A DNA stretch of 44,261 bases from Escherichia phage vB_Ec-G9. The notes beneath the pieces were generated by a model. It saw only the letters and a program-made list of their open reading frames with translations, searched no databases and was not told where the DNA came from. Made by a program: the position numbers and the translations under genes. This document shows, one piece after another, positions 16,821 to 32,594 of this stretch (position 1 is its first letter; each line of letters starts with the position of its first letter). The stretch lies in sequence record PQ433351.1; one strand, written 5' to 3'.

Positions 16821-18026
16821 ATGTCTACACCGAATACTCTGACCAACGTTGCAGTCTCCGCTTCCGGTGAGGTAGACAGCCTGCTCATTGAGAAATTCAA
16901 TGGTAAGGTGAATGAGCAGTACCTGAAAGGTGAGAACATCATGAGCTACTTTGATGTTCAGACTGTAACTGGTACTAATACTGTAAGCAACAAATACTTG
17001 GGTGAAACCGAGTTGCAGGTTCTAGCACCGGGCCAGTCTCCGGCTGCAACCTCTACTCAGGCAGATAAAAACCAACTGGTAATTGACGCCACTGTTATTG
17101 CTCGTAACACTGTTGCTCACCTGCATGACGTACAGGGTGATATTGATAGCCTGAAGCCGAAGCTTGCTACTAACCAAGCGAAGCAGCTGAAGAAGATGGA
17201 AGATGAAATGCTGATTCAGCAGATGCTGCTGGGCGGTATTGCTAACACTCAGGCTAAGCGTACTAATCCGCGTGTTAAAGGCCATGGCTTCTCTGTCAAC
17301 GTAGAAGTTGCAGAAAGTGAAGCACTGGTCAACCCGCAGTATGTAATGGCGGCTGTAGAGTTTGCTCTGGAGCAGCAGCTTGAGCAGGAAGTAGACATCT
17401 CTGATGTAGCTATCCTGATGCCGTGGCGCTACTTCAACGTACTGCGTGATGCAGACCGTATCGTTGACAAGAGCTACACCATTAGCCAGTCTGGTGCAAC
17501 CATTCAGGGTTTTGTTCTGTCTTCTTACAACTGCCCTGTTATCCCGTCTAACCGCTTCCCTAAATTCTCTGAGGGTCAGAAACATCACCTGCTGTCAAAT
17601 GAAGACAACGGTTATCGTTATGACCCGACTGCAGAAATGAATGGCGCTATCGCGGTACTGTTCACAGCTGACGCTCTTCTTGTTGGTCGTTCAATTGATG
17701 TAACCGGTGATATCTTCTATGAGAAGAAAGAGAAGACCTATTACATTGACACCTTTATGTCTGAAGGTGCAATCCCTGACCGTTGGGAGGCAGTGTCTGT
17801 AGTTACCACCAAGCGAGAGACAAATGGCACGCCTACCACTACTGCAACTCAGGCCGCACAGCATACTCAGGTTCTGAACCGTGCACAGCGTAAAGCAGTG
17901 TATGTCAAGAATGCTGCTCAGGTTGCTGCCGCTGCTTCTAGCTTGTCTGCTGAAGACTTGGTTGCTGCTGTTCGTGCTGTAATGGCTAATGACATTAAGC
18001 CGACTGCAATGAAACCTGCTGAGTAA
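16821..18026 (+). CDS. major capsid protein
   Basis: Strong RBS AAGGAGG, expression-type codon usage, promoter upstream and terminator downstream, position. Confidence 0.9.
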   Translation: MSTPNTLTNVAVSASGEVDSLLIEKFNGKVNEQYLKGENIMSYFDVQTVTGTNTVSNKYLGETELQVLAPGQSPAATSTQADKNQLVIDATVIARNTVAHLHDVQGDIDSLKPKLATNQAKQLKKMEDEMLIQQMLLGGIANTQAKRTNPRVKGHGFSVNVEVAESEALVNPQYVMAAVEFALEQQLEQEVDISDVAILMPWRYFNVLRDADRIVDKSYTISQSGATIQGFVLSSYNCPVIPSNRFPKFSEGQKHHLLSNEDNGYRYDPTAEMNGAIAVLFTADALLVGRSIDVTGDIFYEKKEKTYYIDTFMSEGAIPDRWEAVSVVTTKRETNGTPTTTATQAAQHTQVLNRAQRKAVYVKNAAQVAAAASSLSAEDLVAAVRAVMANDIKPTAMKPAE

Positions 18027-29324: not shown

Positions 29325-29607
29325 ACATGCAGCTACAGAGGACGAGGTTGGCATTCTGCATGGTGCTATTACCAAAATCTTCAATAAGAAAGCACAGGCA
29401 ATACTGGACACTATAGAAGAAGACCCTGATGCAGCATTACATTTAGTGTCTGGTAAGGATATTGGTGCGATGTGTAAGTGGGTTCTTGATAACGGCATTA
29501 CCGCCACACCTGCTGCACAGCAGGAAGAGTCCAAGTTATCTAAGCGCCTCAAGGCTATCCGAGAGGCATCCAGTGGTAAGATAATTCAATTCACTAAGGA
29601 GGATTGA
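29308..29607 (+). CDS. terminase small subunit (positional call)
   Basis: GTG start with RBS GGAGGGAG; between holin and large terminase as in T7 gene 18. Confidence 0.55.
   Translation: MSVHNKHAATEDEVGILHGAITKIFNKKAQAILDTIEEDPDAALHLVSGKDIGAMCKWVLDNGITATPAAQQEESKLSKRLKAIREASSGKIIQFTKED
29401..29422 (+). promoter_or_regulatory. phage RNAP promoter embedded in small terminase coding region
   Basis: ATACTGGACACTATAGAAGAAG; encodes LDTIEE in frame. Confidence 0.6.
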
Positions 29608-31505
29608 TGGCTAAGGCAAGAGAATCACAAGCGGAGGCTCTTGCCAGATGGGAGATGCTACAGGAGTTACAGCAGACCTTTCCTTACACAGCGGAAGGTT
29701 TGCTTCTCTTTGCAGATACAGTTATCCATAACTTGATTGCAGGCAACCCTCATCTGATTCGTATGCAGGCTGATATCTTGAAGTTCCTATTCTACGGACA
29801 TAAGTATCGCCTCATCGAAGCGCCTCGTGGTATCGCTAAGACAACACTATCAGCAATCTATACGGTATTCCGTATTATCCATGAACCGCATAAGCGTATC
29901 ATGGTTGTATCCCAAAACGCCAAGCGAGCAGAGGAAATCGCAGGTTGGGTAGTTAAAATCTTCCGTGGCCTAGACTTTCTTGAGTTTATGCTACCAGACA
30001 TCTACGCAGGGGACCGTGCATCCGTTAAGGCGTTTGAGATTCATTACACCCTACGTGGTAGTGATAAGTCTCCTTCTGTATCCTGTTACTCAATCGAAGC
30101 AGGTATGCAGGGTGCTCGTGCTGATATTATTCTAGCGGATGACGTAGAGTCGATGCAGAATGCTCGTACGGCAGCGGGCCGTGCCTTGCTTGAGGAACTG
30201 ACTAAGGAGTTTGAATCTATCAACCAGTTTGGGGATATCATTTACCTTGGTACACCTCAGAACGTAAACTCTATCTACAACAACCTACCTGCTCGTGGTT
30301 ACTCTGTTCGTATCTGGACTGCGCGTTACCCTTCAGTAGAGCAAGAGCAATGTTATGGCGACTTCCTTGCACCTATGATTGTTCAAGATATGAAGGACAA
30401 CCCAGCACTTCGCTCAGGGTACGGGTTGGATGGTAATAGTGGTGCACCTTGTGCCCCTGAAATGTATGATGATGAAGTCCTGATTGAGAAGGAAATCTCT
30501 CAGGGTGCTGCTAAGTTCCAGCTTCAGTTCATGCTTAACACTCGCATGATGGATGCTGACAGATACCCATTACGCCTGAACAATCTAATCTTCACCTCGT
30601 TTGGTACAGAGGAAGTCCCTGTGATGCCTACGTGGAGTAATGATTCCATAAACATCATTGGTGATGCACCTAAGTATGGTAACAAGCCTACGGATTTCAT
30701 GTACAGACCTGTAGCTCGCCCATACGAATGGGGTGCTGTCTCCCGCAAGATTATGTATATTGACCCTGCGGGTGGTGGTAAGAACGGAGATGAGACGGGT
30801 GTAGCCATCGTATTCCTGCACGGCACATTCATTTATGTGTATCAGTGCTTTGGTGTACCTGGTGGATACCGAGAGTCGTCCCTGAATCGCATTGTGCAGG
30901 CCGCAAAGCAGGCGGGTGTTAAAGAGGTATTCATTGAGAAGAACTTTGGTCATGGCGCGTTTGAGGCGGTAATTAAGCCGTACTTTGAACGAGAGTGGCC
31001 TGTAACTCTGGAAGAGGATTACGCCACCGGACAGAAAGAGTTGCGTATCATTGAGACGCTGGAGCCGCTCATGGCAGCCCATAGGCTTATCTTCAATGCA
31101 GAGATGGTGAAGTCAGACTTCGAGTCGGTACAGCACTATCCGCTTGAACTACGCATGTCCTACAGTCTTTTCAATCAAATGTCGAACATAACGATTGAGA
31201 AGAACAGCCTCCGGCACGATGACCGCCTAGACGCCCTGTATGGCGCTATACGGCAATTAACTTCTCAGATAGACTATGACGAGGTTACACGGATTAATCG
31301 CCTCAGAGCGCAGGAGATGCGCGATTACATCCATGCTATGAACACACCTCATCTACGCAGGGCAATGCTATATGGAGATTACGGTACTGAGCGAAGAGTG
31401 ACCAACACTTCCGTAGCGATGCAGCAGCGAGTTTACGGGCAGAACTACCGAAATAAATCGGCAAGCAGAAATACACTTTCTGCAAGGATTTCAAGGACTT
31501 ATTAA
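29607..31505 (+). CDS. terminase large subunit
   Basis: ATPase motif region GHKYRLIEAPRGIAKTT; size about 630 aa; position. Confidence 0.9.
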   Translation: MAKARESQAEALARWEMLQELQQTFPYTAEGLLLFADTVIHNLIAGNPHLIRMQADILKFLFYGHKYRLIEAPRGIAKTTLSAIYTVFRIIHEPHKRIMVVSQNAKRAEEIAGWVVKIFRGLDFLEFMLPDIYAGDRASVKAFEIHYTLRGSDKSPSVSCYSIEAGMQGARADIILADDVESMQNARTAAGRALLEELTKEFESINQFGDIIYLGTPQNVNSIYNNLPARGYSVRIWTARYPSVEQEQCYGDFLAPMIVQDMKDNPALRSGYGLDGNSGAPCAPEMYDDEVLIEKEISQGAAKFQLQFMLNTRMMDADRYPLRLNNLIFTSFGTEEVPVMPTWSNDSINIIGDAPKYGNKPTDFMYRPVARPYEWGAVSRKIMYIDPAGGGKNGDETGVAIVFLHGTFIYVYQCFGVPGGYRESSLNRIVQAAKQAGVKEVFIEKNFGHGAFEAVIKPYFEREWPVTLEEDYATGQKELRIIETLEPLMAAHRLIFNAEMVKSDFESVQHYPLELRMSYSLFNQMSNITIEKNSLRHDDRLDALYGAIRQLTSQIDYDEVTRINRLRAQEMRDYIHAMNTPHLRRAMLYGDYGTERRVTNTSVAMQQRVYGQNYRNKSASRNTLSARISRTY

Positions 31506-31526
31506 TTACTGGACACTATAGAAGGA
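31503..31526 (+). promoter_or_regulatory. phage RNAP promoter
   Basis: TAATTACTGGACACTATAGAAGGAAGG. Confidence 0.8.
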
Positions 31527-31662
31527 AGGCCCAGATAATAAGAGAAAATAATAGGTAATATATAGGTTAACCTAGGTTATATAGGTATGCCTTAGTATGG
31601 GTGTACTCCTGTACACCCTATTCCTTACTACCTTACTATATTTACATAATAGGAGAGAGACA

Positions 31663-31938
31663 ATGGCTAATGATTATAGTAGTCAACCATTAACAGGTAA
31701 GTCTAAGAGAAAGCAGGTACAACCTGTAAGTGAAGAACTAATGCTTCCGGTACTCCCAAAAGAGGCAGCTAGTAAGAAAAGCAATGTTATTAATGATGCC
31801 ACCAAATCAGGTAAACAGAAAGGGGCCATGGTATGTCTTGAAGTGGACGGTGCATTGCAGATTGCTATCGCGGTTGATGGCAAAGAAGATTCAGAGTGGA
31901 AGTTAGTAACAGTGGGTTCCACTGTTACCCCAGTTTAA
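31663..31938 (+). CDS. hypothetical protein, paralogue 1 of tandem pair
   Basis: RBS AGGAGAG; shares SGKQKGAMV...IA(I/V)A...VTP with next gene. Confidence 0.6.
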   Translation: MANDYSSQPLTGKSKRKQVQPVSEELMLPVLPKEAASKKSNVINDATKSGKQKGAMVCLEVDGALQIAIAVDGKEDSEWKLVTVGSTVTPV

Positions 31939-31956
31939 GAGAAGGAGGAAGATTAC

Positions 31957-32247
31957 ATGGCTAAATATGGTACTACAGGTTCTGTTACGGGTCAGGCTTT
32001 TCGAGTGAAAGCAGTACAAACTATTGCAACGGCAATTCCTATGCCTGTTGTTAAGGAAGCAGACCTTAAGAAGAAAGACCACCCTATCAACATCAAACAT
32101 TTATCAGGTAAACAGAAAGGTGCAATGGTTGCTCTTGAGAAAACTGACACAACCATGCATATTGCTGTTGCACGTGGCAGTGAACCAACAGACCCTTGGG
32201 ATGTAACTGGTATGGGAGTGGACGCTGTTACTCCAGCAGGGGAATAA
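31957..32247 (+). CDS. hypothetical protein, paralogue 2 of tandem pair
   Basis: RBS GAAGGAGG; paralogous to 31663..31938. Confidence 0.6.
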   Translation: MAKYGTTGSVTGQAFRVKAVQTIATAIPMPVVKEADLKKKDHPINIKHLSGKQKGAMVALEKTDTTMHIAVARGSEPTDPWDVTGMGVDAVTPAGE

Positions 32248-32249
32248 TA

Positions 32250-32594
32250 ATGCTTAATAAATACTTCAAGCGTAAAGAGTTCGCTTGTCGTTGTGGGTGC
32301 GGTACATCCACTGTTGATGCTGAATTACTACAGGTAGTCGCAGATGTGCGTGAGCACTTTGGTTCTCCTGTAGTTATCACTTCGGGGCATCGCTGTGCTA
32401 AGCACAATGCTAATGTAGGAGGAGCTAAGAACTCCATGCATCTTACTGGTAAGGCTGCTGACATTAAGGTACGAGGCATCTTACCTTCTGATGTACATAA
32501 GTATCTTACTGATAAGTACCAAGGCAAATATGGGATTGGTAAGTATAACTCCTTTACTCATATTGATGTACGTGACGGGTGTGCACGATGGTAG
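32250..32594 (+). CDS. endolysin, zinc peptidase M15-type (L-alanyl-D-glutamate or D-Ala-D-Ala peptidase fold)
   Basis: SGHRCAKHNANVGGAKNSMHLTGKAADI: H-x-H / D zinc-binding pattern of VanY/M15 peptidases. Confidence 0.75.
   Translation: MLNKYFKRKEFACRCGCGTSTVDAELLQVVADVREHFGSPVVITSGHRCAKHNANVGGAKNSMHLTGKAADIKVRGILPSDVHKYLTDKYQGKYGIGKYNSFTHIDVRDGCARW

Follow-up and report, generated by a model that had tools for sequence, protein, structure and literature searches.

What do the two short genes encode that stand in tandem between the large terminase gene and the endolysin gene of Escherichia phage vB_Ec-G9 (PQ433351.1)? The whole stretch of DNA that was analysed, 44,261 nucleotides in length, is called the window below. 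We are fairly confident that both gene products, gp41 and gp42, are structural proteins of the virion. The fuller model towards which we lean is that they are two diverged small accessory proteins on the outer surface of the head. They are encoded by late-expressed duplicated genes, are orthologous to proteins found in the virions of phage Kp7, and belong to a modular family, the longer proteins of which carry domains of the decoration or fibre type. The gene pair and its neighbours are located as follows:

29604–31505, large terminase, the 5' neighbour of the pair
31663–31938, + strand, gene 41-type paralog of 91 aa, first in the array and orthologous to K1-5 gp41 and Kp7 gp45
31957–32247, + strand, gene 42-type paralog of 96 aa, orthologue of K1-5 gp42 and Kp7 gp46
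32250–32594, M15 peptidase/endolysin, the 3' neighbour of the pair

The window seems to represent a complete K1-5-like genome in circularly permuted form. The 1.3 kb around the gene pair are 92–97% identical to Vectrevirus genomes (K1-5-like coliphages; Autographiviridae, subfamily Molineuxvirinae), and the order of genes is as in K1-5: tail adaptor, holin, small and large terminase, the two small genes, M15 endolysin, holin, Rz-like spanin, and tailspikes. A sequence-only reading of this DNA had described the pair as tandem paralogs with the terminase on one side and the endolysin on the other, and both open reading frames (ORFs), their + strand orientation, and the neighbours were confirmed. 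The paralogy was borne out by a BLASTP alignment, in which gp41 and gp42 are identical at 34 of 93 positions (37%, E = 1e-13) over almost the full length, the SGKQKGAMV, IA.A, and VTP motifs included. Judging from this alignment, the similarity is far above chance.

The gp41 protein is 90% identical to its K1-5 namesake. A word-based search revealed 98 homologues of gp41 and 106 of gp42, nearly all of them on contigs of 43–46 kb, i.e., in SP6-like phage genomes. In comparison with the close relatives K1-5 and fTuEco01, both genes have a ratio of nonsynonymous to synonymous substitution rates (dN/dS) of 0.4–0.5; in comparison with Kp7, the ratio is about 0.13 for gene 42 only, the dS of gene 41 being saturated. 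Genes 41 and 42 are real coding genes that evolve moderately fast under purifying selection.

The strongest indication of function comes from Kp7. The level of identity between gp41 and Kp7 gp45 is 47% (BLASTP, E = 1e-23), and that between gp42 and Kp7 gp46 is 50% (E = 4e-21). A matrix of domain identities likewise places Kp7 gp45 as the nearest named relative of gp41, and Kp7 gp46, together with its PA45-9 orthologue, as the nearest relative of gp42. In the Kp7 record (GenBank ON148527), gp44 (large terminase) and gp48 (endolysin) are separated by three genes, which encode gp45 and gp46, of 88 aa each, and gp47, of 178 aa ("with Ig-domain", i.e., an immunoglobulin-like domain). The similarity extends to the particle itself: the major capsid protein of the window matches that of Kp7 in the Protein Data Bank (PDB) entry 7Y3T with E = 4.7e-175, and the tail adaptor matches 7Y22 with E = 6e-82; the latter entry also includes the Kp7 portal (match over all 522 residues, E = 0). 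By these matches, Kp7 is a close structural relative of the window phage. A difference in length can be noted between the major capsid proteins. The ORF at 16821–18026 of the window encodes 401 aa, and the Kp7 protein of 363 aa aligns to residues 1–363, which leaves a C-terminal extension of about 38 aa in the window protein.

Purified Kp7 virions were separated by sodium dodecyl sulphate–polyacrylamide gel electrophoresis (SDS-PAGE), and the silver-stained bands were assigned by mass spectrometry to, among others, the "minor capsid proteins (gp32, gp45, gp46, and gp47)", which the T7-like phages Kp9 and Kp11 do not have (bioRxiv 10.1101/2024.05.19.594906). Since gp41 and gp42 are linked to Kp7 gp45 and gp46 both by BLASTP and by the identical genomic slot, they are orthologues of proteins physically found in virions. 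Virion presence is demonstrated by SDS-PAGE and mass spectrometry for the Kp7 proteins only, and the name "minor capsid protein" is used in the Kp7 record only; other members of the same 90% clusters are named "hypothetical" or "acetyl-CoA acetyltransferase". In the literature searched, neither virion proteomics or cryo-electron microscopy (cryo-EM) of other SP6-like phages nor any other mention of the Kp7 minor proteins was found, and a citation of the Kp7 structures elsewhere gives them as unpublished. The Morganella phage MP2, considered as a further source of SP6-like data, was set aside as T7-like.

The sequence-only reading had left the choice between virion decoration or accessory proteins on the one hand and modulators of lysis or defence on the other. 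The first option is favoured by the presence of the Kp7 orthologues in purified virions and by the capsid-decoration and fibre domains on longer family members; no support for a lysis or defence role was seen, with no direct test made and the PADLOC anti-defence library not searched. A non-structural role would mean that gp41 and gp42 are late proteins such as regulators of lysis timing or counter-defence factors, and that the Kp7 proteins were detected as a carry-over of abundant late products. The position of the endolysin, whose ATG (32250) follows the stop codon of gene 42 after 2 nt, would suit such a role, and small fast-evolving arrays of paralogs, with dN/dS values such as those given above, are frequent among anti-defence genes. 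We nevertheless regard it as highly improbable, since three separate family members were found in the gel bands of purified virions and all domain fusions of the family are to structural modules. Moreover, the proteins have no transmembrane segments, and holin and spanin are encoded by separate genes downstream.

The names in the databases point in another direction. Both proteins match the family phrog_2725 (gp41, E = 4e-37; gp42, E = 6e-45) at positions 4–100 of its 238-position profile. This family is labelled "acetyl-CoA acetyltransferase", as are the RefSeq proteins of K1-5 (gp44/gp45) and the proteins in many phage records. Such labels, in RefSeq, PHROGs, and several phage records, are all that backs the reading of gp41 and gp42 as thiolases. 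Thiolases are about 390 aa long, and the proteins of the window have 91 and 96 aa. In Pfam and NCBIfam, no thiolase model or any other model was found for gp41 or gp42 even at E ≤ 1, with the exception of a sub-threshold match to DUF6342, and neither a single-sequence nor a profile query revealed sequence relatives in the PDB. The predicted fold, a small beta-barrel, also speaks against it. We therefore consider the thiolase label refuted and give it next to no credence. The claim of the sequence-only reading that the genes are of unknown function and outside any known family was half right: phrog_2725 is a recognisable and widespread family (235 clusters at 50% identity), and this family is misnamed and has a single experimental observation to its credit.

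The extent of the family was determined with a hidden Markov model (HMM) profile based on an alignment of 34 diverse members (A1), which was searched exhaustively against 1.84 billion representatives at E ≤ 1e-3; the cluster count given above is from this search. The positions invariant in A1 are T11, G12, and K18 of the N-terminal arm, N45, the S-G-K-Q motif, A56, A72, and W81. The domain occurs alone in proteins of about 90 aa (the majority), twice per chain, three times in chains of 260–300 aa, and at the N-terminus of longer proteins. The triple-repeat chains number about 25–40; a dedicated HMM found 25, and the count of the search tool is higher. The triple-repeat alignment is too divergent for a pattern search, and a word-based search with it returned three proteins only, on contigs of 1.6–2.4 kb. 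A scan of viral contigs with the triple-repeat protein P0206 found no genomic context for these proteins. In four triple-repeat relatives (P0207, P0208, P0211, and P0215; alignment A2), an N-terminal tail of 15–30 aa rich in Lys, Arg, and Thr (e.g., KKPRTRTTKAA) can be noted, which single-domain proteins do not have.

The domains fused to the C-terminal side of the family domain are informative. One partner is the Sf6-type tail-needle knob PF16532 (E = 1.7e-30 and 5e-43). Another is an Ig-like domain, present in Kp7 gp47, in the 178-aa paralog of PA45-9, and in P0285; in the first two proteins, this domain matches PHROGs of Hoc-like decoration proteins and the PDB entries 5LXK and 8ZVI, named "Decoration protein". 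The C-terminus of Era103 gp48 matches the "head fiber protein" family phrog_4366 (E = 4.5e-11) and the phi29 head fibre (3QC7, E = 2e-4; 6QVK, E = 1.6e-3), with a weak match to gp45, the decoration trimer of Shigella phage B2 (9D82, E = 0.015). The Ig-like domain is confined to the relatives, no Ig match having been found in gp41 or gp42, and the C-terminal fibre or trimerisation region (PF11133; phrog_4366, phrog_14753) is likewise absent from these two proteins, the chains of which end after the ~90-aa domain. Elsewhere in the window, the two tailspikes and the adaptor included, and in the related loci, no further ORF with the family domain was found. An hhalign comparison of this domain with the N-terminal part of the window's own tailspike gave E = 0.63, and homology was rejected.

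A location inside the particle can be weighed against these fusions. As small internal or ejected head proteins in the style of T7 gp6.7 or gp7.3, gp41 and gp42 would be present in low copy and serve assembly or early infection without being displayed on the surface. The size of about 10 kDa and the presence in the virion would fit, as would the Lys/Arg-rich tails of some triple-repeat relatives. Ig-like, knob, and head-fibre fusions make sense only outside the particle, the bands are visible on a silver-stained gel, and a third paralog comes and goes among near-identical phages, which suggests that it is dispensable. An internal location is accordingly quite improbable in our opinion.

The choice between the head and the tail end of the particle is closer, and a number of observations weigh against the head surface. 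Virion mass spectrometry does not separate head from tail, and "minor capsid" is the label of the preprint authors. Ig-like and knob modules occur on tail and neck proteins too: chains named "tail protein" and "putative neck whiskers protein" are among the matches of the Kp7 gp47 Ig domain, and the Sf6-type knob was first described on the tail needle. The phi29 match of Era103 gp48 consists of two stretches, each of them marginal. Foldseek places the small barrel in tailspike-like proteins (SGNH esterase, pectate lyase, "tail fiber"), the positions in these chains not being given. No public structure or localisation of family members was found; Kp7 gp45, gp47, and gp32, the window proteins, and the family profile match no PDB chain (gp46 was not itself queried), and the 7Y3T matches in the PDB sequence search are major capsid protein chains alone. 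If the minor proteins are capsid decorations, they are not deposited in 7Y3T and are perhaps unresolved there. Finally, the three-fold packing of the triple-repeat protein discussed below follows from a predicted confidence score only.

Much of this would agree with virion proteins of the neck or tail, i.e., whisker-like or collar proteins or anchors of accessory fibres at the portal vertex, with the ~90-aa domain as a docking module. The genes also share the right-end module with the tailspike genes. We consider such a location unlikely, given that the deposited Kp7 portal–tail complex 7Y22 (connector and adaptor) has no chain that matches the family, and that the domain is in none of the tailspike or adaptor ORFs examined. 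The most specific fusion partner is the phi29/B2-type head-fibre region, and the Kp7 authors, who own the cryo-EM maps, chose the name capsid proteins.

Structure prediction provides a possible shape for the head-surface proteins that we favour. The AlphaFold2 monomer of gp42, computed with alignment A1, has a predicted local distance difference test (pLDDT) score of 72. In this model, the N-terminal ~30 residues are of low confidence and are followed by a short strand and a helix, and then by a four-strand beta core at residues 57–91. The model of the triple-repeat protein P0205 (pLDDT 85, predicted template modelling score (pTM) 0.78) contains the same elements three times in a compact unit, and since the pTM of 0.78 spans three domains, their mutual arrangement would be a defined one. 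Fold similarity to lambda gpD, T4 Soc, or P22 Dec was not found. A beta-trefoil (ricin-type, "ThreeFoil") was considered and rejected, the trefoil repeat having no support beyond a single pairwise hit.

We propose that each ~90-aa unit would form a small SH3-like beta-barrel after a conserved extended N-terminal arm with the invariant T-G...K. Three units would be arranged around a three-fold axis, whether as three copies of one protein, as a mixture of paralogs, or as a single triple-repeat chain, and the T=7 head would carry this trimer on its outer face, either to decorate or cement the shell or to form the base of a fibre. Modules of the knob and phi29-fibre types are obligatorily trimeric. 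We infer trimeric action from the triple-repeat chains and from the fusions to these two trimeric modules. The unit itself would be the particle-binding base, because it is always N-terminal and conserved with variable distal modules, and because in Era103 gp48 it stands at the place of the capsid-binding base of gp8.5. The two proteins of the window would thus represent the bare base without a distal module, with stabilisation or marking of the capsid surface as their main effect, and relatives would supplement this base with a third or fourth paralog that bears an adhesion-type module. A knob or fibre is built from three copies of one chain, so that paralogs with such a module should be homotrimers; on the same reasoning, gp41 and gp42 are each likely to trimerise on their own, at different, non-equivalent sites. 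The existence of two conserved lineages also argues for different sites. Mixed trimers would be the alternative.

The family was found in the TerL–endolysin slot of every annotated relative examined, in variable copy number. Two copies are present in K1-5 and in the window, and three in the Pectobacterium phage POP72. Kp7 also has three, two short and one with an Ig domain, and the Klebsiella phage PA45-9 has four, two of them short, one with an Ig domain, and one with a knob. Era103 encodes one short copy and one with the fibre-like region; in the Vibrio phage Vp670, one copy was detected. The Proteus phage PM 85 (KM819695) has two unannotated copies at L004 2094–2459 and 2453–2755 (HMM E = 1e-28 and 6.5e-34), which sit between the terminase and a tail fibre gene, in a stretch left blank in the GenBank record. 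A metagenomic contig with the family in this slot encodes a terminase C-terminus (a weak match, E = 0.0022) and then two triple-repeat genes with a pair of small genes between them. The ORF at L006 1656–1880, on a metagenomic contig with a triple-repeat gene and four small genes 3' of that gene, has the Acb2/Tad1-hairpin domain PF24729 of an anti-CBASS/Thoeris sponge family. By these domain matches, the post-terminase region of that metagenomic phage mixes structural accessory genes with counter-defence genes.

The order of the copies is also conserved. The gp41-type gene is always first in the array (Kp7 gp45, PA45-9 gene 1, POP72 gp48), and the orthologues of the gp42 type come next; the duplication is therefore older than the split of these genera. 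An additional gene of about 680 bp was found between gene 42 and the endolysin gene in fTuEco01, UTI89UKE2/3, KAW1A4500, and Phi100-A, the flanks being 95–96% identical to the window:

L007 1153–1830 (Escherichia phage fTuEco01), third paralog of 225 aa with the family N-domain and the C-domain phrog_32357; its place would fall at 32247/32250 of the window

The window does not have this gene, i.e., its presence or absence is polymorphic. The carriers agree with the window in their flanks at 95% of positions or more, so that the third paralog, a probable surface module, would be dispensable.

The signals that would direct the expression of the pair were read from the sequence upstream of each gene:

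31504–31525, + strand, late promoter of the phage RNA polymerase (SP6/K1-5 type), directly 5' of the pair, overlapping the end of the terminase gene, with +1 at about 31521
31599–31618, + strand, hairpin with an 8-bp GC-rich stem, GGGTGTAC-TCCT-GTACACCC, with a pyrimidine-rich tract 3' of it, within the leader of gene 41; a terminator-like hit
31651–31656, + strand, Shine–Dalgarno sequence AGGAGA of gene 41, 6 nt 5' of the ATG
31942–31948, + strand, Shine–Dalgarno sequence AAGGAGG of gene 42, 8 nt 5' of the ATG

The sequence-only reading had placed a promoter at 31503 and a strong ribosome-binding site ahead of each gene, and both statements hold, the promoter as a motif. The motif GGACACTATAGAAG lies at 31511–31524 and is one of 11 sites on the + strand of the window, 0.34 being expected by chance. 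It is kept ahead of the array in K1-5 and fTuEco01, and genus-specific variants occur in Kp7 and POP72. The stem of the hairpin is preserved by other sequences in the relatives, namely GGGTACTC/GAGTACCC in Kp7 and GGGAC/GTCCC in POP72. Its persistence despite sequence change suggests a conserved RNA element, for which a terminator or partial terminator of upstream transcripts, an RNA-processing site, and a stabilising hairpin are candidate roles. In one related record, a "terminator" is annotated in this stretch. The whole leader of gene 41 folds no better than shuffled sequence (z = −0.37).

An upstream ATG at 31597 was considered as the start of gene 41 and rejected. The true start is the ATG at 31663, because the homologues begin with MAN(D/N)YS, the AGGAGA stands 6 nt upstream, and position 31597 falls within the conserved hairpin. 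It can also be noted that genes 41 and 42 lie in one reading frame with a TAA and 18 nt between them (31936–31959), so that stop-codon read-through would give a two-domain protein resembling the natural fusions. The three POP72 genes have a common frame as well, and those of Kp7 and Era103 do not. This lack of conservation means that the frame relation is probably a coincidence, and a read-through fusion was rejected.

More broadly, the ~90-aa unit may be a structurally new and widespread capsid-anchoring module of Autographiviridae, composed of an SH3-like barrel and a conserved N-terminal arm and acting as a three-fold assembly. It would occur as two to four separate genes per phage, as two-domain chains, or as single-chain pseudo-trimers, and would serve as a base for exchangeable surface modules (Ig, Sf6-type knob, phi29-type fibre, and other domains). 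We offer this generalisation tentatively, at somewhat less than even confidence. If it is true, K1-5-like therapeutic phages bear an unrecognised head display platform that can be engineered, and the family is a natural series recording the fusion of an oligomer into a single chain.

The K1-5, K1E, and SP6-like phages are capsule-targeting phages used as therapeutics and models, and in their annotation both genes are hypothetical or wrongly enzymatic. With the virion assignment, and with the head surface as the probable site, the list of particle proteins of these phages grows by two. In relatives, the modular anchor displays Ig, knob, and fibre domains; sites of this kind are used for display engineering, and they may affect particle stability, adhesion, and immunogenicity. 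The name "acetyl-CoA acetyltransferase", which is spreading through RefSeq, PHROGs, and phage records without any domain hit, is due for replacement. Small accessory proteins of the capsid are already known to be common, and the orthologues had been labelled by the Kp7 group. The part that was not found in the searchable literature is the family-level picture, i.e., the single, double, and triple forms, the swappable distal modules, and the mis-annotation as an enzyme.

Several known systems resemble the proposed arrangement. Lambda gpD, T4 Soc, and the Dec protein of P22/L are of similar size (9–14 kDa) and are accessory late proteins thought to be trimeric at three-fold-type sites of the expanded shell. 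The likeness to lambda gpD includes the N-terminal arm of the family, which is conserved yet not confidently folded in isolation. T5 pb10 consists of an N-terminal anchor and an outward Ig domain. With T4 Hoc, T5 pb10, and Moo19 gp28 as the reference, the Ig-bearing paralogs of the family (Kp7 gp47 and the 178-aa protein of PA45-9) share the pb10-like layout of anchor and Ig domain; in contrast, the window has no Ig-bearing paralog, and the anchor domain of the family is unrelated to those of Hoc and pb10 as far as compared. In phi29, gp8.5 is a trimer attached to the capsid, with an N-terminal base that binds the shell and a C-terminal fibre that protrudes from it. When gp8.5 (3QC7, 6QVK; PF11133) is compared with Era103 gp48, the family domain is found at the position of the base, followed by the gp8.5-like region.

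The Shigella phage B2, which is N4-like, has a 99-aa protein, gp45, that decorates the capsid as a homotrimer at the centres of hexamers, as determined by cryo-EM (PMC11654681). Its gene is located beside the lysis genes and is paired with a paralog-like neighbour, gp46, which shares the N-terminal module and ends in a knob. The first ~45 residues of B2 gp45 and gp46 (L010 3474–4486) are common and correspond to positions 1–45 of phrog_17779. The shared module suggests that gp46 may be a second capsid-anchored protein, one that is not among the virion proteins listed in the B2 paper. The knob of B2 gp46 is homologous to the knob fused to the family in PA45-9, and the C-terminus of B2 gp45 resembles that of Era103 gp48. 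The differences are that B2 is a T=9 phage and that the parts in common are distal modules, which gp41 and gp42 do not have. Homology of the family to the N-terminal 45-aa module of B2 gp45 and gp46 found no support (hhalign E = 0.29 and 0.53), so that the two systems are treated as analogous, not homologous.

In PhiM1, which likewise belongs to Autographiviridae, the capsid is decorated by a pair of paralogs that occupy different lattice sites; one consists of the capsid-binding motif alone, and the other is extended by a fibre-like domain (PMC11440229). Unlike the trimers proposed here, these are helical dimers at two-fold axes, with an unrelated fold. Kp7 differs from the window in its gp47, an additional paralog that ends in an Ig-like domain. 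Its gp45/gp46/gp47 array shares with the gene pair the same slot, the phage promoter, and the conserved hairpin, and it stands in a phage with a closely related major capsid protein and tail adaptor.

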